A stretch of 64,000 nucleotides of DNA, taken from NCBI GenBank assembly GCA_963795855.1, contig CAWCIZ010000003.1:928001-992000 (forward strand), written 5' to 3'. Shown here one piece after another: positions 5,341 to 24,513 of the stretch. Position 1 is the stretch's first letter. Each line of letters begins with the position of its first letter. The position numbers were made by a program, and so were the translations under genes. The stretch comes from Vulcanimicrobiota bacterium. GTDB lineage: Bacteria > Vulcanimicrobiota > Vulcanimicrobiia > Vulcanimicrobiales > Vulcanimicrobiaceae. The notes beneath the pieces are model-generated. The model made no database searches, had not been told where the DNA came from, and saw only the letters and a program-made list of their open reading frames with translations.

Positions 5341-5517
5341 CTAAGTAGCCGTTGCGGTCGGGCTTGGGCTCGGGCTGGGACTTCTACTCGGTGTAGCCGT
5401 TGGGACGGGAGCCATTGGGCCCGCCGGAATGCCGCCGTTCGTGTTGCAGGCCGAAACAGCGGCCAGCACGCAAGTCGCGATCAGCGCGCAGAACAACGCC
5501 TTCAGTATTCTCGCCAT
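5341..5517 (-). CDS. Small 58-aa lipoprotein, absent from the ORF track
   Basis: Hand translation MARILKALFCALIATCVLAAVSACNTNGGIPAGPMAPVPTATPSRSPSPSPSPTATAT*; lipobox VSA-C; Pro/Ser/Thr tail; fills an otherwise empty gap. Confidence 0.7.
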   Translation of the reverse strand: MARILKALFCALIATCVLAAVSACNTNGGIPAGPMAPVPTATPSRSPSPSPSPTATAT

Positions 5518-5581
5518 GGCTCAGGTGGGCTATTTGTGGTCCATGAGGGCTTTTCCCGCCGCTGTTGAACATGTCGCGCCA

Positions 5582-7103
5582 ATGCGAGCACGAGCGCAAA
5601 ACGCGGCCTCCGTCGACAGCGCACGCGAACTGTTTCAGGCCGCCGAGTTTACTTCCGCCGCGGCGACACTTCGCGCGCTTCTCGAGCAAAGGCCGGACGC
5701 CGTCGATGCGGCTCTACTCCTGGCACGGATTGAGATGCGCCTCGGCGAGCCGGCGGACGCGCTTGCAACGCTGACTCGATTCGGACGATTTGCGCGTAAA
5801 AGCGCGAAACCGGAACTGACGATGCTCAAAGCGGTGGCGTTCGCGCGTTCGGGCGACGCTGCTTCCGCGCGAACGCATTTTCGTAGCGCGCAAGCGCTCA
5901 TTGGGCCGGACGATGCATCCTACCCGGAACTGATCTATCAAATCGCCGCTAACGAATGGATGGAACGCCGCCTCGATAAAGCCGAAAAGTTGCTCGAGCG
6001 TATGCCGGAGGTACGGACTAGCGAGATCGATTTGCACGCGCGAATTTTGCACGGGGCGATAGCCTCGGCGAGCGAAAATCTTGCCGCGCAGGGCGCCATT
6101 CTGCTCGATGCTATACGGTGCACCGACGCCGCGGGCGCGGACGTTTATCTCTACGGCATGCTCGTGACGCAGATTGCGTCGCTTGCACTCGAGTCTGCCC
6201 AGCACCGCGCTGCGGGACGCCGCAATCGAACGCGTGGAAACGGTAAGGTGGACAACGGATATTGCGGATCTTCACTTTCACGCTGCTCGCGCGATAGCGT
6301 GGCGACACGCTTTGGACGGCGATGAATTCAGCGCTTTTCGCCGCTTGAAAGAAGCGCTCAACGCAGCGAATTCGGACGCGTGGCGCGTCGCCGCGCTGAC
6401 GGATCGCGCCTACCTTGCCGCGGTGCTCGGCGAGCGGCGCTGGGCCGCGCAAGAGTTGCGCGACGCGCACGACCTTGCCTCGAAGATCGACTGGGCAAGC
6501 GTCGCAGGCGAGGAGAAACTCGCTCTCCCCGTGCTCGCGGAGCTTTTCGCAGGCCGCGACCCTTCAGTCGCCATCGCCTACGTGACGACGTTCAAGAAGC
6601 TCGATAGGAATTTTCCGCGTATTCTTTCGTCTCGGCGCGATCGGCGGGTCGACGCGCTCGAAGCGTTTTCGCTCGGGCGCGTGCAACTGGCGCTCGGCGA
6701 ACGCCGCGAAGCGCGGCGGCTGCTCGAAAACGCGTGGTCGATTTACGATACGCTCGGGATGCAGTGGCGCGCGGGCCGTGCGGCGCTTTCGCTCCTAGAG
6801 ATCGACGCAAAGGGCCCTTGGCGCCAGCGGGCGGATCGGGCGCTCGAGCACTATCCGCGCAGTTGGCTCGTCCGTAAGGGGGTGACGCCGGGGGCTGTCG
6901 TCGCTGCCGCGCACCACGCTCCGCAACTGACGCCCGCGCAAAGGACTGTTTTGGACTTGCTTCTGGAGGGCCGCGGCACCGACGAAATATCGCGAACGCT
7001 GGGACGCAGCGCGTTTACGGTTCGCAACCACATCAAGGCGATTTTCAAGGCGTACGGCGTCACGTCCCGAGCGGCACTCATCGTTAGAGCTACAAGAGGC
7101 TAG
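5582..7103 (+). CDS. TPR-repeat protein with C-terminal LuxR-type HTH, regulator A (apparent frameshift near 6194; start uncertain)
   Basis: Helical TPR-like N-terminus; C-terminal LTPAQRTVLDLLLEGRGTDEISRTLGRSAFTVRNHIKAIFKAYGV. Confidence 0.8.
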
Positions 7104-10333: not shown

Positions 10334-12313
10334 ATGGCCGGAGCGGGCGAAAATCCGTATCTCGCGCGTTTTCGCCGCAAGTTCGGCAGCGAAGACGAGA
10401 CGAGCCGTTATGTCTCGGCGCTGTATGACGTTCTAGCGAACACCATCGGCTCGGACAAGCTGGTGCTGCGCGCCGGGAAGATGAACGCGCTCAAACTGAT
10501 GCGTTCGACCGCGCTGCCGGACCGCATCTGCGCGCTCGCGCGTTTGGTCTTCGAGGATCCGACGCTCGAACGCGTTACGGGGCGAGCGAATTCGCGACGC
10601 GTCATTTCCGAGATCGAAGAACATCTGGCGGATCTCATCGCGCAGAAAAACGTCGAAGATTCGATCGAGCGCCGCATCAACACGAAAATGATCGAGCGCC
10701 ATCAAGAATACTTGAAGGACCTCAAACTCGAAGCATTGCGCGAGGACACCGGTCCCGAAACGCCCGCGACGCAGAAGAAGCTGGAGGAACTGCAGCAACT
10801 CGATGCTCGCGGTCTGGCGGCGTCGGCGCTGCAGCTGCTGCGCCCGCAATCGCTCAAGGAAGTGGTCGGACAAGAGTCCGCCATTCGCTCGCTGCTGGCA
10901 AAAATTTCGTCGCCGTATCCGCAGCACGTGATCCTCTACGGGCCGCCCGGTGTCGGCAAAACGACCGTCGCCCGTTTGGCGCTCGAAGTGGCGAAGAACC
11001 GCGCCTACACGCCTTTCAAAAAGGAAGCGCCGTTCGTCGAGGCAAGCGGAACGACGCTGCGCTGGGATCCGCGCGAGACGACGAATCCGCTGCTCGGCAG
11101 CGTGCACGACCCGATCTACCAGGGCAGCCGGCGCGAATTCGCCGAGGGCGGCATTCCCGAGCCGAAACTCGGCTTAGTGACGCGCGCCCACGGCGGCGTG
11201 CTCTTCATCGACGAGATCGGCGAGATGGACCCGCTGCTGCAAACGAAGATCCTCAAAGTTCTCGAAGACAAGAAGGTCACGTTCGAATCGTCGTATTATG
11301 ACGAATCCGCGTCGAACGTTCCCGAATACATCAAACGATTGTTTCGCGCCGGCGCGCCGGCCGATTTCATTCTCATCGGCGCCACGACGCGAGAACCGGA
11401 AGATATCGACGCCGCCATCCGCTCGCGCTGCGCGGCCGTGTACTTCGAACCGCTGACCCAGCATCAAATCGTGAGCATCGTCAACGGCGCAATCAAACGT
11501 CTGCGCGCGAAAGCCGCCCGAGGCGTCGCACCATTGATCGCCTCGTACACGATCGAAGGGCGTAAGGCCGTGCAGGTCGTTGCGGACGCCTACGGGCACG
11601 CGCTGTACCGAATTGCCGGCAGCCGCGCGAAGGTAGACGACGCGAAGCACGTCACTATCACCGAAGACGACGTGCGCGACGTCGTTCAGGCGAGTCGTCT
11701 CGTACAGCATACGACGGTAAAGGCGCGCTCGACGCGCGAAATCGGCAAAACCTTCGGCCTAGGCGTATTGCACTATTTGGGCAGCATCATCGAAATCGAA
11801 GCGGTCGCCTTCGGCTCCGGCGCGAGCGGCAAAGGCACCGTGCGTTTCAACGACGCAGCCGGAGCAATGGCGAAAGACAGCGTGTTCAACGCGGCTGCGG
11901 TGCTGCGCGCGGTAACCGGCTTGGACACGGCGAATCACGATTTGCACATCAACGTGATCGGCGGCGGAAACATCGATGGACCCTCTGCGGGCCTGGCGAT
12001 TTTCCTCGCTCTGTATTCTGCGCTCACGAAGACGCCGCTGCCGCAGGACGTTGCGATCACCGGCGAGCTGTCGATTCAAGGCAAGGTTCGTCCGGTCGGC
12101 GGTATCGTCGAGAAGTTGTATGCCGCAAGACAGGCGGGCATGCGCGCGATACTCGTGCCCAAGGAAAATCTTCGAGAAATTGACCGTACGCTCGCAGGAA
12201 TCGACGTCATTCCTATTACGTCGGTGGAGCAGGCGTTCCGCGCGCTTTCTCTCCACAAGAAATCCACAAGGCGAGTGACGCGCGGGCGGCGCAGTACTTC
12301 CGCCCGCTCATGA
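10334..12313 (+). CDS. lonC: Lon-family ATP-dependent protease (LonC-like)
   Basis: Walker A GPPGVGKT, Walker B LFIDE, Lon protease DGPSAG; lies between rplI and dnaB. Confidence 0.85.
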   Translation: MAGAGENPYLARFRRKFGSEDETSRYVSALYDVLANTIGSDKLVLRAGKMNALKLMRSTALPDRICALARLVFEDPTLERVTGRANSRRVISEIEEHLADLIAQKNVEDSIERRINTKMIERHQEYLKDLKLEALREDTGPETPATQKKLEELQQLDARGLAASALQLLRPQSLKEVVGQESAIRSLLAKISSPYPQHVILYGPPGVGKTTVARLALEVAKNRAYTPFKKEAPFVEASGTTLRWDPRETTNPLLGSVHDPIYQGSRREFAEGGIPEPKLGLVTRAHGGVLFIDEIGEMDPLLQTKILKVLEDKKVTFESSYYDESASNVPEYIKRLFRAGAPADFILIGATTREPEDIDAAIRSRCAAVYFEPLTQHQIVSIVNGAIKRLRAKAARGVAPLIASYTIEGRKAVQVVADAYGHALYRIAGSRAKVDDAKHVTITEDDVRDVVQASRLVQHTTVKARSTREIGKTFGLGVLHYLGSIIEIEAVAFGSGASGKGTVRFNDAAGAMAKDSVFNAAAVLRAVTGLDTANHDLHINVIGGGNIDGPSAGLAIFLALYSALTKTPLPQDVAITGELSIQGKVRPVGGIVEKLYAARQAGMRAILVPKENLREIDRTLAGIDVIPITSVEQAFRALSLHKKSTRRVTRGRRSTSARS

Positions 12314-13675
12314 GCATAACGAATCTCCCGCTGGTCGACCGAATTCCGCCGCAAAACTTAGAGGCGGAGATGGCGTTGCTCGGCTCGATTCTCGTCGATC
12401 GCGAGATCATGGGCATCGTGAACGAGATCGTGCGCCCGGACGATCTGTACGCACACGTGCACGAGTCGATCTACGCGGTGCTTCAGCATCTGTACGACCG
12501 CGGCGAACCGCTCGACAAAATTACCGTTGCGGAAGAACTCAAACGCCGGAGCGAACTCGAGAAAGTCGGGGGACTCTCGTACCTCAGTTCGCTGATGGAT
12601 ACGGTGCAGACCGCAGCATCCGCGGCGTACTACGCGAAGATCGTGCGCGAAAAAGCAGTTCTGCGCGGTCTGATTCACGCCGGAACGCGCATCACTCAAC
12701 TCGGCTTCGAAAACGAAGAAGACGTCGACGGCGCGCTCGACCAAAGCGAGCAAATGGTTTACGACATCGGGCGCCGGCAAATGCAGGGCGAGTTTACGCC
12801 CGTGAGCCGCTTGCTCAAACCGGCGTTCGAACACATCGACAAGTTGTTCCACAACCGCGGGGGCCGCACCGGTTTGACGTCGGGCTTCGCCGACATCGAC
12901 GAAATGACGACCGGTTTTCAGCCCGGCAACTTCATCATTCTGGCCGCGCGACCCGGTATGGGCAAGACCTCGTTCGCGCTGAACATGGCGGTCGCAGCAT
13001 CGCGGGAAGAGACCGCGCCCGTCGCGTTCTTTTCGCTGGAGATGTCGAACGACGAGCTGGTCCAGCGTCTGATCTGCGCGGAAGCGGAGATCAGCATGCA
13101 CGACATGCGGCGCGGCAACATCAAGCCGCACCATTGGGAGAAGATCTCCGACGCGATGGGCGTGCTCAACGAGATGCCGATCTACCTCGACGATTCCGGC
13201 GGGCTTTCGGTGTCCGAGATTCGCAGCCGCTGCCGCAGGCTCAAGTCCGGACAGGGACTCTCCGCAGTGTTCATCGACTATCTGCAGTCTGGTGCACCCG
13301 AGCGTGCTGAGCCGAGGCGCGAATCGCAACGAAGAGCTTTCCGATATCTGCCGCACGCTCAAGATGACGGCGAAAGATTTGGGCGTGCCGATCGTTGGGC
13401 TGGCACAGTTGAACCGCGGCGTCGAAGCGCGCACCGATAAGCGGCCGCTTCTGAGCGATCTGCGCGACTCGGGCTCGCTCGAGCAGGAAGCCGACATGGT
13501 CGCGTTCCTTTTCCGCGAAGGATATTACCACAACGAAGCCGCGGAGCCCGACTTGACCGAATTCATCATCGCGAAACATCGAAACGGGCCGACGGGAACC
13601 GTGAAATTGCGCTTTCAGCGCGAGTTCACGTTGTTCCGGCCGTACGGCGACGCGACGCACTACCCGACGCCGTGA
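12310..13675 (+). CDS. dnaB: Replicative DNA helicase (apparent frameshift near 13288)
   Basis: PPQNLEAE, AARPGMGKT, DYLQ, QLNR, DLRDSGSLEQEAD, IAKHRNGPTG. Confidence 0.95.
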
Positions 13676-18361: not shown

Positions 18362-18391
18362 TTGGCCCTCCGAAGGAAACCCCACATTCGT

Positions 18392-18646
18392 ATGCACCGC
18401 CACAACACCCCGCTGCGAGGCGTGAAGGCGACCCCGCGGCCCAAAACCGGCGATCCGAACTACACGGCCGTGAATTATGCGTATGCCGGCAAGACGGGTC
18501 ACATTCACGAGGTGGTTACCGTCGGCGGGCGAGAGCTGGCCAAGGTCGGCTTCGACGACAGAAAGATCGTCTATTACTATCTCGACGATCTCGACCTGGA
18601 CCGCTCGGCCAAGCGCGGAACGTTCCATGACACCGATCGAGGGTAG
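18392..18646 (+). CDS. Small hypothetical protein (possible SH3/KOW-like fold)
   Basis: 84 aa; YAGKTGHIHEVVTVGGRELAKVGFDD beta-rich segment. Confidence 0.55.
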   Translation: MHRHNTPLRGVKATPRPKTGDPNYTAVNYAYAGKTGHIHEVVTVGGRELAKVGFDDRKIVYYYLDDLDLDRSAKRGTFHDTDRG

Positions 18647-18721
18647 GCTACCGTACGTCGTAAGGGACACTTTACATATACTTAACACATGCAGCCTTGA
18701 AGTTGGTCCCTAAGGCCTAAA

Positions 18722-18757
18722 CTTAGCGCTCGCTTAAACGCCGCTAAGCGGTATAAT
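18722..18757 (+). promoter_or_regulatory. Promoter with consensus -10 and an inverted repeat around the -35 region
   Basis: CTTAGCG(18722)-N13-CGCTAAG(18742); TATAAT at 18752; AT-rich gap. Confidence 0.55.
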
Positions 18758-18820
18758 AACTCAGGGTAAACATCCACACCAAGCAAGCGCGTCATGGATG
18801 GCGCTGGGGGAGAAATCGCG

Positions 18821-19814
18821 GTGCAAAATCGTCTTATGCGAGGCGCTCTTTTCTTTTTGGGCTTAGCCCTCGCAGGCTGTTCTACGCAAGGATCGCAGAA
18901 CGTTCCGCAGGGCGGGGTCACTCGCCCACCGAGCGGTCCGGCGCTGCAAGCGCCCGCCCTTCGGCGGCCTATGGACGTTTGGGGCGGTCCATCCGGACTG
19001 TTCCGCATGTTGAATTCGCTTTTAGGAGACTCCGCGCCGACGATCGGGGGGAGGACGCTCGCGCACTTCTACGTCGGCGTGCGTGAGATCGACGCTATTC
19101 AAAACGGACAGAGCGTCGTGCTCGGTTCGTCGTCGACGCCGTATCAGATCGACTTGCTCCAGTATCAAAACGGCAGCGGCGATTGGATGACGCAGACGAG
19201 CGTTCCGGCGCAGACGTACACGCAACTGCGCTACGTTTTCGACGTCGGCAGCACGCAGGCGGTTTTCGCGGACGGCAGCACGATGCCGGTCCGATTCAAC
19301 GCCGGACCTTCGCGCAGTTCCTCGGGTGAAGGCGCGTCCACGTCGACATCGGCCGACTCGACCTATGCGAACGCGGTAGACGTCGTCGTGAACACGCAGC
19401 TAACCGTGCAGTCCGATTCGGATACCGTGGCGGCGGACTTCAACCTCGCCGAATCGTTGGGTCAAGCGCCGGGCGCGCTGGTCGTTCGTCCGGTGGTCTC
19501 AGCCGCAGCCGATCCGGGTCAAATCAACGGAACGGTGCAGAACGCTAACGGCAACGGCGTGCAAGGCGCCACCGTGGTCGCGTACGGTTCCAACGGCGCC
19601 GCGGTAAATTCCACGGCGACGGATGCGAGCGGCGCGTTCAATCTCCATGCGCTGCCGGCCGATACATATCAGACTCGTGATCTATAACAATTACACGAAC
19701 GCGGCCGGCTACCGGACGAACGCGTCCGGCCAGACGTCGAACGGTTCGGTCAGCGGACCGTCGGTTTCCGTTACTTCGGGAAGCACTGTTTCTGCCGGAA
19801 CCATCGGCGACTAA
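18821..19814 (+). CDS. DUF4382-like lipoprotein with carboxypeptidase-regulatory-like domain, copy 1 (apparent frameshift near 19673)
   Basis: Lipobox LAG-C; LLGDSAP, IDLLQYQ, ADFNLAESL, GQINGTVQNANG. Confidence 0.75.
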
Positions 19815-19835
19815 TCGGGACGGAGAGACACAAAC

Positions 19836-20823
19836 ATGAAGCGTACAGCTTTACACCTGTGTGCTCTAGCGACGGCGTGCACCCTAGCCGCGTGCGGATC
19901 CGGTTCGAATCCGAATCCGCCGGCGCAAGTGCCGCAGTCGGGCCCAGGTTTGATACGGCCGATGGACGTCTGGGGCGGACCTAGCGGTTCGCGACTGAAC
20001 GTTCTGCTCGGCGACGCCGCGCCGGATTTGGGCGGCAACAAACTCCAGCATCTCGATCTCGGCATAAAAGAGATCGATGCAATCGACAACAGCGGACAAA
20101 CCACGGTACTGGCTTCGTTCGAAACGCCGCGCGTCGTCGACGTGCTTGCGCACCAACGCGACGACGGCGAATCCGTGGCCGACGCGAACGTCAGCCGCAC
20201 CAGTTATCAAGAGTTACGGCTGGTGGTGGACCTCAGCTACAGACTTCGCCAAGTTCAGCGGTGCGCCGCGAGTGCCGGTCAACTTCCTGGTCAACGTGGC
20301 CAGTGCCAGCAGCGTCAACGCCGGCGTGACGACGCTCACGACGAGCGACGGACCGGGAGCGGTAGACGTGCTGGTGAAGCAGGCGTTTTCCATCGCGGAC
20401 GGTGGCCACCAATCGGTTCGCATGGACTTCAATGCGTTCGAATCGCTGACGCTCGACCAGTCGGGAACGCTCCTCGCGCGACCGACGATGTTCGTAGCGC
20501 CCGTCGACGAGATGGGCAGCGTGAGCGGCCGCGTGCTGGACTCCAGCGGGAATCCGGTCCAGAACGCAACGGTCGCGGCGATCGCGCCGGACGGTTCGGT
20601 CGGCAATACGGACTGGACCGGGCCGCGAGGACACTTCAGCATCGGCACGCTGCGTGCCGGAACGTATCAGCTCGTCGTCTACAACGCGTACACGACGGCT
20701 GCCGGACGCGCAGTCACCGCATCGGGGGTTAGCAGCGCCAACGCCTCAATGCAATCCATCTCCGGGCCGAACGTTACGGTAACGGGCGGCAAAAACACTG
20801 CTGCAGGCATCATCAAGGACTGA
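19836..20823 (+). CDS. DUF4382-like lipoprotein with carboxypeptidase-regulatory-like domain, copy 2 (apparent frameshift near 20243)
   Basis: Lipobox LAA-C; LLGDAAP, MDFNAFESL, GSVSGRVLDSSG; paralog of copy 1. Confidence 0.75.
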
Positions 20824-20829
20824 TCGACG

Positions 20830-22389
20830 ATGCAAAGCATAATTGCGGTAACGGGTACGCAGGCTGCAGAACTGCTGGAAGGCGCACTGGAGGCGGATCG
20901 CCGGGCAAGGCGTGACGATGCTCTGGAGCTGCTGGCAGGCTGCGCGGAGTGGCCCGCACCATACAACGAGCAAGGACTGGTACTACGCGCCGACGTGCTG
21001 ACCGCGCGCGACGCCATCACCGGCCTTCAAGAACTAGCCGCACACGCGGATGCGTTCACCTCGCCGGACGGGCGGGTGGCATACCTGATTGCGTCGGCAC
21101 GCGCCTACATGAAAGCGCGCAACTTCGATGCCGCGGAAGCGATGCTGGATAGCGCGCAGGGCGGACTCGAAGCCGCAAAGGGCGAGCGCCGTCACGAACT
21201 CGCATACGCTCGTGCGCGTCTGCAGTGGAATCGCCGCGAATACGATCCGCAAAGCGAGCACCTCGCATTAGCGCTGCGCTCGGCGGACCCCGCGATTCGC
21301 ATGAATTCCCTGAACCTGCGCGGTTGGATGCATGCAGGTCTGGAAGACTATCGTTCGCAGTTGCGCGATCTGCTCGGCTGCCTCGAAATCTTCAAGGAAC
21401 ACGGTCATCTTTGCGGTCTGGCCAGCGTCGCGACGTCGCTGCAGACGGCATCGGTAGCCGGTTGGGAACTGCACGACCCGGATGCAATGCGTCAAGCCGA
21501 AGCGGCGTTCGACGCGATTGCGTGGACGCCGGACATCCAAGTCCACCGGTTCCTGTGTCTGCGCTCGCTGGCGTGGCACGCGTTCCTAGCGGGCGACTCG
21601 GCTCGCGCGCAGTGGCTCTTCAAAGACTCCAAGGACGACGCGCCGACGCCGGCGTGGAAGGTCATGGCGCACGTCGATCGGGCTTATGTTGCGCGCATCA
21701 ACCGCAACGAAGCGTGGGCGGCGGAAGAGCTGCACGAGGCGCACGGCCTGGCGCGCAAAGTCGAGTGGCATGCGACTCGCGACGAAGAACGCATGGCGCT
21801 CATAACCCTGGCGGTGCTCTTCGCACCGATCGACCTGGGACACGCCCAGCGCTACGTTTCGACCTACATCGAATTGGGCGCCGGCAACCTGAACTCCAGC
21901 GTCGAAGCCTCGCACGAACCACGCCGGAACACCGCGCATCAGAAGTATGCTGCGGGCCGCGTTCAGGCGATGCTCGGCAACAAAGCCCTCGCGATTCGGG
22001 CACTCGAGGAAGCGTACGAGATCTTCACCCAGATCGACCACGACTTCCGCGCGGCGGTCGTCTCGCAAGCGCTTAGCGAACTCACCGGTGATGCCAGATG
22101 GCTGGACAACGCTCGCGTCCACGCGGCGAAGTTCCCGAAGAGCGCGCTGGCTCAACGGTTGAATCAGCACGACGAGCGCAAGGAAGGACCGGAACTCCAA
22201 GGCTTGACGCCGACGCAGCGACAGATTGCGATCGCGCACTGCCAAGGCTTGGATAACGCGGAACTTTCGCGGCGCTTCAGCCGGAGCACGTTCACCATCG
22301 AAAAACAACTCGAAGAGATCTATGCCGCCTTCGGCGTGCGATCGCGCGCCACGCTGCGCGACGAATTGCATCGCCGGGGCATCCTGTGA
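20830..22389 (+). CDS. TPR-repeat protein with C-terminal LuxR-type HTH, regulator B
   Basis: LTPTQRQIAIAHCQGLDNAELSRRFSRSTFTIEKQLEEIYAAFGV; aligns with regulator A. Confidence 0.8.
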   Translation: MQSIIAVTGTQAAELLEGALEADRRARRDDALELLAGCAEWPAPYNEQGLVLRADVLTARDAITGLQELAAHADAFTSPDGRVAYLIASARAYMKARNFDAAEAMLDSAQGGLEAAKGERRHELAYARARLQWNRREYDPQSEHLALALRSADPAIRMNSLNLRGWMHAGLEDYRSQLRDLLGCLEIFKEHGHLCGLASVATSLQTASVAGWELHDPDAMRQAEAAFDAIAWTPDIQVHRFLCLRSLAWHAFLAGDSARAQWLFKDSKDDAPTPAWKVMAHVDRAYVARINRNEAWAAEELHEAHGLARKVEWHATRDEERMALITLAVLFAPIDLGHAQRYVSTYIELGAGNLNSSVEASHEPRRNTAHQKYAAGRVQAMLGNKALAIRALEEAYEIFTQIDHDFRAAVVSQALSELTGDARWLDNARVHAAKFPKSALAQRLNQHDERKEGPELQGLTPTQRQIAIAHCQGLDNAELSRRFSRSTFTIEKQLEEIYAAFGVRSRATLRDELHRRGIL

Positions 22390-24513
22390 CGCCGCTGCTT
22401 GCAGCACTCGCCGGAGCGGTACTAGCACTCCTCGTGGCGGGCGCCGTCGCGGTCTTTGACCGCCGGCGCTCGCTGCGGGCGCTCGTCGAAAAGCGCTACA
22501 GCGTTCTCGAAAGCATTCCGGACGCTTTTCTCATCGTCGATCGCGAGTTTCGATTCACGCACGCAAACGAGCGCGCTGAAGATCTCTTCGGCCGCAGCGC
22601 GGGCGAACTGGTTGGGTATCGCGTCGAAGACATTCTCGACCCGCTCGCATCGGAGCTGCTGCCCGAGATGCGCCGCGCCGCCGAAGCGGGACGCCCGATC
22701 GAGCGACTACAGTATTTTCCGGCGACGAGCCGCTGGATCGAGATCTGCATGCAGCCGGCGCGCGACGAAGTGCTCGTGTATCTGCGCGACATTTCGGAGC
22801 GTAAGAAAGCCGAACTCAGCGCGCTGGACAAAGAACGGCGTCTGCGTTTGCTGCTCTCGCAAATTCCGGCGGTGCTCTTCACCGTCGATCTCGACATGAA
22901 CATCACGTCGGTCGCGGGCGCCGCGCTTAGTCAACAAGATCTTTCGGAAGATAAACTGGTCGGCGCACCGTTCGACGCGCTGCTCGCCGGCCACGAACAA
23001 CGCCTCGCATCGGTGTCGGCGGTGCGACGCGTACTGGCGGGGGAGGCCGTTTCCTACGAAACGCAACTGCGCGATCGCTGGCTGCAGAACGACGTCGAAC
23101 CGCTTCGCGACGCACAGGGGAGCGTCGTGGGCGCCATCGGCGTTATGCTGGACGTCACGGAAGTCCGCTCGAGTGCGGAGCGCTTCGCGCAGCTCGCCCG
23201 TCAAGATGTGATGACGGGGCTGCCCAATCGGCTCGCGCTGGAAGAGCGTCTGCCGGAGCAGGCTCGACCACGCGCTGCAAAATCACGAGTCGGTCGCGGT
23301 GCTCTTCGTCGACCTCGACCGCTTCAAGACGATCAACGACACGCTCGGGCATCGCGTCGGCGACGATCTGCTGCGCGCCGTTTCAAGCCGCATGCAGACG
23401 CGCATCGACAATCGCGCGACGATTTACCGGCCTGGCGGCGACGAGTTCGTCATCGTCATCGACGGAATCAAACACAAACGCACGGTCGCGGCCATTTCGA
23501 TGGAAGTGCTGCAGGCGTTCGCCGAACCGTTCGACGTCGAAGGCCGCGAGCTGTTCGTCACCGCGAGCCTTGGAGCGAGCATCTTTCCGCAAAATGCGCA
23601 GACCGCGGACGAACTCATCGCATACGCCGACTCGGCGATGTATCGCGCCAAAGAGTCCGGGCGGAACAACGCGAAATTTTACGATGGAACCATGCACGCG
23701 CACGTGCTCGAACGCATGGGCTTGGAGCAGGATCTGCGGCAGGCGCATTTGCGCGGCGAGCTGCGGCTGCTGTATCAGCCGATCGTCGACATGGCTTCGC
23801 GGCGCATCGTCGGCGCGGAAGCGCTGCTGCGCTGGCAGCATCCGCTGCTCGGCGAACTCTCGCCGCAGACATTCGTGCCGATCGCCGAAGAAACGGGCGT
23901 CATCGTCGAGATCAGCCGCTGGGTGCTGCGCGAAGCTTGCGCGAACGCGGCGCGGATGCGGCGCGAGGGAGCCTCGGATTTCCGAATCAGCGTGAACCTT
24001 TCGCCACGCGATTTCTACGAACAGGATCTCGCCGCCACGCTCGCCGCCGTGCTTGCGGAAACCGGTTTGCCGGCGGACGCGCTGGATTTGGAAGTCACCG
24101 AGAACGTGGTGCTCAACGACATGGCGCTCGAGACGCTGCAGCGGATCGCGAACATGCACGTCAACGTCGTCGTCGACGACTTCGGCACCGGCTACAGCTC
24201 GCTGCACTACATCAAGCGTTTGCCGGTCAAGGCGATCAAAATCGATAAGAGCTTCATCGACGACGTCGCGATGGATCCGTACGATCAAGGCATCGTCAAA
24301 GCCATTACGACGCTGGGCAATACGCTCAACCTGCGCATCATCGCCGAAGGCATCGAGTCGGAATCGCAGTACGAGTTCTTACGCTCGCTCAAATGCGAGC
24401 ACGCGCAGGGCTATTTCTTCTATCGCCCGCAGACGTGGAGCGCGCTCGTCACGATTTTGCAGCGTAGCGGTGAGGTGAGTACCGGCGCGCGCGTGATTCC
24501 GCTGTACGGCTAG
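22386..24513 (+). CDS. Membrane-anchored PAS-PAS-GGDEF-EAL protein (apparent frameshift near 23262)
   Basis: N-terminal TM helix, two PAS domains, TGLPNR, GGDEF, AEAL, DDFGTGYSSL. Confidence 0.9.

Follow-up and report, generated by a model that had tools for sequence, protein, structure and literature searches.

A species-matched heptapeptide in tandem lipoproteins of Vulcanimicrobiota, a candidate signal for the adjacent TPR/LuxR regulator

The lipoprotein and regulator cassette

The window (the whole stretch of 64,000 nt that was analysed) encodes two tandem lipoproteins, a regulator and a GGDEF-EAL protein in one cassette, which contains the following features:

18668..18702, + strand: box TTTAC-N6-TT(T/G/A)AC-N9-CTTG, candidate operator of the regulator, conserved in close relatives
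18752..18757, + strand: TATAAT, a -10-like hexamer without a consensus -35, aligned in same-genus relatives
18821..19814, + strand: lipoprotein A, with signal peptide, lipobox Cys (18878), Pro-rich linker, motif, DUF4382 and CarboxypepD_reg (Pfam, sequence)
18974..18994, + strand: heptamer DVWGGPS, copy 1, the proposed signalling peptide (within-genome matching, covariation)
19836..20823, + strand: lipoprotein B, an ancient paralogue of A with the same architecture, Cys at 19893 (Pfam, tree)
19965..19985, + strand: heptamer DVWGGPS, copy 2 (sequence, within-genome matching)
20830..22389, + strand: proposed receptor of the peptide, a 519-aa regulator with some 11 TPR-like helical hairpins followed by a LuxR/GerE HTH at the C terminus
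22386..24513, + strand: membrane-anchored PAS-PAS-GGDEF-EAL gene, split by a frameshift (Pfam); proposed output, c-di-GMP turnover

For lipoprotein A the start was set at a GTG that a purine-rich site precedes; position 18794 holds an ATG in the same frame. Lipoprotein A scores 36.6 bits against PF14321 (DUF4382, cut-off 25) and 38.8 bits against PF13620. Truncated B reaches 23.8 bits for DUF4382 and the intact orthologues 44.7 and 29.1, and the intact orthologue of B exceeds both Pfam cut-offs. The reading frames of A and B shift near 19675 and 20237, respectively; because their orthologues are open in 7/7 same-genus genomes, these shifts are probably assembly indels. The assembly is indel-rich: single-base frameshifts also occur at 12310-13675 (replicative helicase), 23290 (GGDEF-EAL gene) and about 6200 (a paralogous regulator).

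The regulator gene begins 6 nt past lipoprotein B, and the PAS-GGDEF-EAL gene overlaps its 3' end. The protein gives weak Pfam matches to TPR and LuxR/GerE, with the HTH at residues 455-519, and has no match to an ATPase family. No segment of it spans the membrane (hydropathy over 19 residues peaks at 1.44), and it is cytoplasmic.

The candidate operator, a direct-repeat box, sits about 50 nt upstream of the TATAAT hexamer, and its pattern is present in 21/100 upstream regions. With a matrix built without the window genome the site scores 34.1 and the next best in the genome 17.7; with no clear second site, a wider regulon was not found. Scanning of the upstream region found no full sigma-70 promoter. 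A palindrome, CTTAGCG-N13-CGCTAAG (18722-18748), was rejected as an operator for want of conservation in related genomes. A small unannotated ORF (18362-18646) directly ahead of the cassette, divergent from a gene resembling gamma-carbonic anhydrases, is kept at this place in 20 fetched loci and has no Pfam match.

The arrangement is conserved. A profile search of fetched loci placed a DUF4382 lipoprotein directly upstream of 106/114 distinct regulators of the clade. The eight regulators without a profile match comprise one with a DUF4382 gene that the profile missed, one at a contig end, one at a gap, two with a tiny lipopeptide bearing the same core, two with another carrier domain and a related core, and one with nothing. 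The PAS-GGDEF-EAL gene lies directly 3' of the regulator in 84/111 clade cassettes with enough flank, and of 1/40 distant paralogous regulators; seven more clade cassettes run into a second cassette, and for most of the remainder the available flank was only about 300 nt. Of 348 genomes of the family, 104 have close homologues of the regulator; the named close relatives of the window genome belong to the lineage Ca. Baltobacteraceae/Vulcanimicrobiota/Eremiobacterota. The wider regulator family is present in 137/160 sampled family genomes, 1/3 of a sister family and 0/87 others searched; another family, of which 19 genomes were covered, gave a single weak match. These regulator tallies, like the cassette and motif counts, take in up to four unpublished genomes (G025, G027, G218, G219 and G246, varying by count); the alignments, trees and covariation tests exclude them. 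Neither a dedicated protease nor a dedicated importer accompanies the cassette. The 3-Mb genome has 26 matches to family-5 solute-binding (Opp/Dpp-type) proteins, some of them fragments, an unusually large set for its size.

Matching of the heptamer within genomes

The sequence RPMDVWGGPSG is encoded twice, at 18965-18997 and 19956-19988 (33 nt each), and a search of the whole 3.06-Mb genome returned exact copies at these two places only. An earlier note on this DNA described the two copies as separated by six codon differences, all synonymous (cct/ccg, gtt/gtc, ggt/gga, cca/cct, tcc/agc and gga/ggt), which is correct at both coordinates. As the Met and Trp codons cannot vary synonymously, the change affects 6/9 codons, not 6/11; the Ser codon is TCC in one copy and AGC in the other. 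The domains behind the copies are 44% identical, so an identical run of 11 residues is far above background.

Comparison among species refines this picture. The note had called the motif invariant, which holds inside the window genome, but the core differs among species: heptamers include DVWGGPS, DVIGGPA, DVVGGPT, DVLGGPG, DVWGGPA, DVTGGIG, DVYGGIG and others. What related genomes keep is a pattern, D-x-x-G-G-x-x, together with a conserved basic-Pro-x-Asp, and residues that are species-specific yet paired within each genome. Between tandem paralogues of the same genome, 62/63 heptamer residues match (nine genomes), and only 2 of 362,880 re-pairings match as well; for six same-genus genomes the match is 42/42, with 2 of 720 re-pairings as good. 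Outside the heptamer, position +8 matches in 2/9 genomes, -3 in 4/9 and -1 in 6/9. The drop at +8 and -3 sets boundaries that enclose a heptamer starting from Asp, so that the matched unit is seven residues and not all 11 of the motif as first delimited. A tenth tandem pair (L183), matched at 6/7 residues by eye, was left out of the permutation test, and the G002 pair, duplicated more recently (68%), weighs less as evidence for matching. In L159, L160, L161, L165, L172, L184, L195 and L222 the whole cassette is tandemly duplicated, and both peptides of each genome are again alike.

This matching does not reflect recent duplication: A and B form separate clades older than the species, with domain identities of 68% (A/A), 68% (B/B) and 41% (A/B). 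Synonymous differences in the motif are equally frequent within genomes (32/74) and between them (43/100 and 39/99), which makes recent DNA conversion unlikely. Some variable codons are common to both copies within a genome, and old conversion retained by selection may have contributed to the matching. Paralogues that are matched in each genome and varied in each species imply that both copies are read by some species-specific component of the cell.

The motif was further compared between DUF4382 proteins with and without an adjacent regulator. A permissive call, which found the motif partly by construction, was replaced by a strict count: 78/112 regulator-linked proteins have the motif vs 1/16 unlinked ones, where five linked and three unlinked proteins were not anchorable and 11 of the linked misses are, by eye, anchoring errors. 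Judged from these sequences, the motif travels with the regulator and not with the DUF4382 domain. The earlier note had named, as what would refute its reading, a first structured strand common to all DUF4382 proteins regardless of genomic context, and the sequences speak against this: regulator-free DUF4382 proteins mostly do without it, and the Pfam DUF4382 match begins downstream of it.

The lipobox Cys is present in 98/98 alignment rows, the rows having been chosen from the Cys. The heptamer lies 16-50 residues past the lipid-bearing Cys, in the mature chain, and its spacing varies from about 12 to 21, with a mode of 16; the commonest spacing sets it directly against the domain. A model of an intact orthologue of A is all-beta with two domains; in this short-spacing protein the first strand (residues 38-46) starts at motif position 6 and only residues 32-35 are disordered, while in the window lipoproteins the heptamer ends just ahead of the equivalent first strand. 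Disorder in that model covers the linker and positions -1 to 3 of the motif, and positions 6-8 open the first strand. Because the heptamer abuts the folded domain, a second cut is not obviously accessible, and this is the main difficulty for its clean release. In fold searches the carrier resembles pilins and CnaB domains weakly, with TM of at most 0.26.

The regulator and its further precursors

Residue volume contrasts, corrected for the tree, were correlated between peptide positions and 451 regulator columns across 93 cassettes. Peptide position 6 and regulator residue 163 give the strongest association (r=-0.77, z -7.0, top of 451 columns), and position 6 also covaries with residue 133 (r +0.65). 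Residue 279 is the top column for position 2 (r -0.53), column 367 covaries with position 3, and position 7 covaries with residues 126 (+0.52) and 196 (-0.52), as well as 181. In residues, Gly at peptide position 6 accompanies Trp163 (15/19), Ala accompanies Tyr163 (12/15) and Ile, Val or Leu accompany small aliphatics; Pro at position 7 accompanies Tyr126 in 40/41 cassettes. Tests on independent pairs, with residue classes chosen after viewing the table, gave p of about 0.016 and 0.03 for two contrasts and 0.06-0.125 for three, none in the wrong direction; position 7 and residue 159 gave no signal in such a test. Raw mutual-information signals (for example residues 95, 159 with Ala at position 7) were driven by phylogeny and failed the tree correction. 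Among held-out cassettes, 8/12 obey the 6/163 rule and 4/12 break it, and the rule fails as it stands in a subfamily with multi-copy precursors; there, with a post hoc shift of one residue, a terminal Pro goes with Tyr126 in 10/11 vs 1/5 rows, which are related.

The model of the regulator (pLDDT 92.6) is all-helical, with no strand, and shows about 11 helical hairpins followed by the HTH. In TPR proteins, the first helix of each hairpin lines the groove. By the secondary structure of the model, the covarying positions lie on alternate helices, and of the six strongest all but 181 (126, 133, 163, 196 and 279) fall in the first helix of a hairpin or at its start; the positions had been recorded before the model was obtained. 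The order of the covarying pairs implies an antiparallel peptide.

The closest fold match is MalT domain III (PDB 1hz4; Z 21.6, rmsd 6.1, 349 aligned), followed by eukaryotic TPR proteins (Z 20.3 and 19.9), RapI (Z 18.9, rmsd 5.8, 323 aligned), AimR (Z 18.3, rmsd 6.7, 317 aligned) and NprR (Z 15.0). Foldseek matches include Rap-pheromone complexes, and NarL/DegU HTH structures match the C terminus. The lead of MalT over the eukaryotic TPR proteins is small, so the fold does not settle the ancestry of the receptor. Sequence searches, Pfam and NCBIfam among them, returned no RRNPP family or structure, with which remote kinship remains compatible, and one distant regulator homologue shows a faint TPR_MalT match.

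Paralogous regulators have precursors that carry a core of this type but no domain. One such pair lies within the window:

5341..5517, - strand: lipopeptide of 58 aa, its Cys directly followed by the related core NTNGGIP; divergent from the paralogous regulator
5429..7103, + strand: paralogous TPR/LuxR regulator, frameshifted into two ORFs, start uncertain

The same arrangement occurs in L087-L090 and L301. Because its core adjoins the lipid-bearing Cys, this signal might retain its lipid, or its release might require cleavage beside the anchor. The third regulator of the genome has upstream a 58-aa lipopeptide with a core led by P-M-D (G000:C2:520200-520373, - strand), and this one genome would carry three apparently orthogonal channels. 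Six of 180 lipoprotein-like starts in the genome match the core loosely, and four of the six adjoin the three regulators.

Small secreted ORFs with the core lie beside 20/48 distant regulators (one of the 20, in L098, is a false match to an unrelated membrane protein) vs 19/300 control genes, and in a second sample beside 22/40; in both samples about half of the distant regulators are without such a precursor. Many of the tiny precursors terminate in the core, and several contain 2-7 tandem copies, every one preceded by a His/Arg-x-x site of similar type. The core is independent of its carrier, and the feature is real and much larger than the two-gene motif first noted; we read it as a new family within a familiar type of system. 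A cut before Asp, as the earlier note placed it, agrees with these repeat units and with the boundary of the within-genome matching.

The survey turned up further variants. Precursors in L066, L070, L072 (sister family), L077 and L116 have other repeated cores, which end in PPY or form 9-15 copies of short Gly/Pro-rich units and suggest further peptide classes. Among L077/L107, L096, L116, L179 and P0011 (954 aa) are regulators in tandem or fused, and ones of about 450 aa that apparently lack an HTH (Rap-like?), some of them with no visible precursor.

A candidate peptide signal and its relation to known systems

We regard it as very probable, from comparison of sequences, that the heptamer is the ligand of the regulator, and as probable that it is a species-specific signal peptide which is exported, cut and re-imported to reach the downstream TPR/LuxR protein as its cognate receptor. 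The precursors would be exported as lipoproteins and cut before Asp, after a basic-Pro/Thr-x site (R-P-M is the proposed processing site ahead of copy 1), with a second cut about 7-8 residues on. The short peptide would be re-imported, probably via an oligopeptide ABC importer, of which the many family-5 systems are candidates, and would bind lengthwise in the TPR groove, its C-terminal end at repeats 4-6 and its N-terminal end at repeats 8-10. Binding would switch the C-terminal HTH, most likely at the promoter of the cassette itself, and the output would include the c-di-GMP enzyme. We infer these steps, as we do the operator, the direction of regulation and any action from cell to cell. With one receptor serving both lipoproteins, their heptamers would have to remain identical to each other even as peptide and receptor change in concert from species to species. 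Cells of this phylum are bounded by an outer membrane (PMC9758169, PMC6664022), which a signal passing between cells would additionally have to cross.

An alternative is cell-autonomous sensing, in which the same pair operates without intercellular communication and the regulator reads the unexported precursor in the cytoplasm or fragments of its own lipoprotein degraded in the envelope, as a monitor of export or of envelope stress. Covariation and within-genome matching fit this equally, the motif lies against a folded domain and may become accessible only once the protein unfolds or is degraded, and lipid-anchored precursors of a diderm cell remain with their producer. Against it, tiny precursors without cargo, secreted ones that are not lipoproteins and ones with 2-7 copies suit dose amplification of a released signal, and fast diversification at the species level is typical of kin signals; we consider it unlikely, though the most serious of the alternatives. 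The earlier note offered a cleavage site or a released ligand, and the ligand half appears well supported, but a cleavage site alone is insufficient. Had a protease merely freed or polymerised an adhesin- or pilin-like lipoprotein while the regulator sensed something else, such as a sugar like MalT, the conserved basic-Pro-x-Asp, the weak pilin/CnaB likeness of the carrier and the top match to MalT domain III would all be accommodated. Species-specific matching at positions 2-7, covariation with residues of the adjoining regulator (which the earlier note had not remarked on) and the core in carrier-free precursors beside regulators would go unexplained, and we hold this to be improbable.

Still less probable is a structural N-terminal element of a DUF4382 subfamily, homogenised by short gene conversion between the tandem paralogues. 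Positions 6-8 do join the first strand in one model, the spacing has a mode and some variable codons are shared within genomes, but the spacing also ranges widely, 15/16 unlinked DUF4382 proteins fold without the motif, synonymous divergence within genomes is not reduced (with Ser as TCC vs AGC) and the core exists without any domain. Hardly credible, finally, is a ribosome-stalling monitor that couples lipoprotein export to translation of the regulator, for which a signal peptide and a Gly/Pro-rich core ahead of the next gene and the many tiny precursors ending in the core could be cited: the core in the window is about 280 codons from the stop, some precursors are divergent or lie downstream on the opposite strand (L065, L087-L090), no RAPP/RGPP motif is present and the covariation partner is a protein, not the ribosome. 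RAPP-like arrest peptides have a C-terminal RAPP-like motif upstream of protein-localisation genes (PMC12992588), whereas the downstream gene here is a regulator.

The proposed signalling by a released heptamer has its nearest parallel in one-component RRNPP-type systems, described for Bacillota (PMC10075063, PMC12700828). As in Rap-Phr, NprR-NprX, PlcR-PapR and AimR-AimP, a secreted precursor adjoins a cytoplasmic receptor of the TPR superhelix type (here in 106/114 cases), the peptide is short and species-specific, and peptides are duplicated in precursors, tandem pheromone copies being known in RRNPP propeptides (PMC11343458). The TPR core resembles RapI, NprR and AimR at Z 15-19, although MalT and eukaryotic TPR proteins score as high or higher. 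RRNPP propeptides are secreted via Sec and matured by peptidases; here the sequences carry a predicted lipoprotein signal peptide and lipobox. The differences are substantial. The RRNPP(A) criterion of a 10-100 aa propeptide (PMC10075063) is matched only by the precursors of homologous regulators, those of the window being about 330 aa, and at 519 aa the regulator narrowly misses the receptor range of 250-500 aa. The HTH of RRNPP(A) receptors, when present, is N-terminal (PMC12700828), and here it is a C-terminal LuxR/GerE domain. The hosts are diderm Vulcanimicrobiota/Eremiobacterota rather than Bacillota or their mobile elements, the precursors are lipoproteins, in the clade two-domain ones with the peptide in an N-terminal linker, and a c-di-GMP gene is linked.

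The order of a helical-repeat sensor and then a LuxR HTH is that of MalT, a sugar-responsive activator with N-terminal ATPase domains whose ligand is maltotriose. Unlike MalT and the LAL STAND proteins, the regulator has no N-terminal ATPase module, in keeping with its all-helical model, and the evidence indicates a gene-encoded peptide as its likely ligand. Enterococcal sex pheromones are fragments of lipoprotein signal peptides read by a TPR receptor; they come from before the Cys, the heptamer from the mature chain behind it. In diderm cyanobacteria, PatX-HetR involves an exported precursor whose processed peptide acts on a transcription factor (PMC12756182), with unrelated parts, and the PatS/PatX/HetN-HetR systems share with the present one a core found in both small and large proteins. 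Their motif RG(S/T)GR is fixed, HetR is not a TPR protein and they act in patterning within a filament, whereas the core here is D-x-x-G-G-x-x and its neighbour a TPR/LuxR protein. Titles and abstract openings returned by literature searches held no description of the system; some supplementary table may nevertheless mention it.

Taken at its broadest, the finding could be an independently evolved peptide quorum sensing of Gram-negative Eremiobacterota, in which a MalT-like sensor-plus-LuxR module was recruited as peptide receptor throughout most of the family sampled, precursors range from tiny multi-copy lipopeptides to folded adhesin-like pro-pheromone lipoproteins, and species "dialects" control c-di-GMP; we judge the chances of this to be evenly balanced. 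If it is true, RRNPP-like logic operates with another receptor architecture in a diderm, mostly uncultured phylum, and has either arisen again or is far older. The cassettes would offer about 100 receptor-peptide pairs from nature and, with them, a specificity code at the level of residues (6/163, 7/126 and 2/279). Testing it takes synthetic heptamers and a single purified protein, and orthogonal peptide switches could be derived from it. They would also provide the first functional handle on a DUF4382 subfamily.
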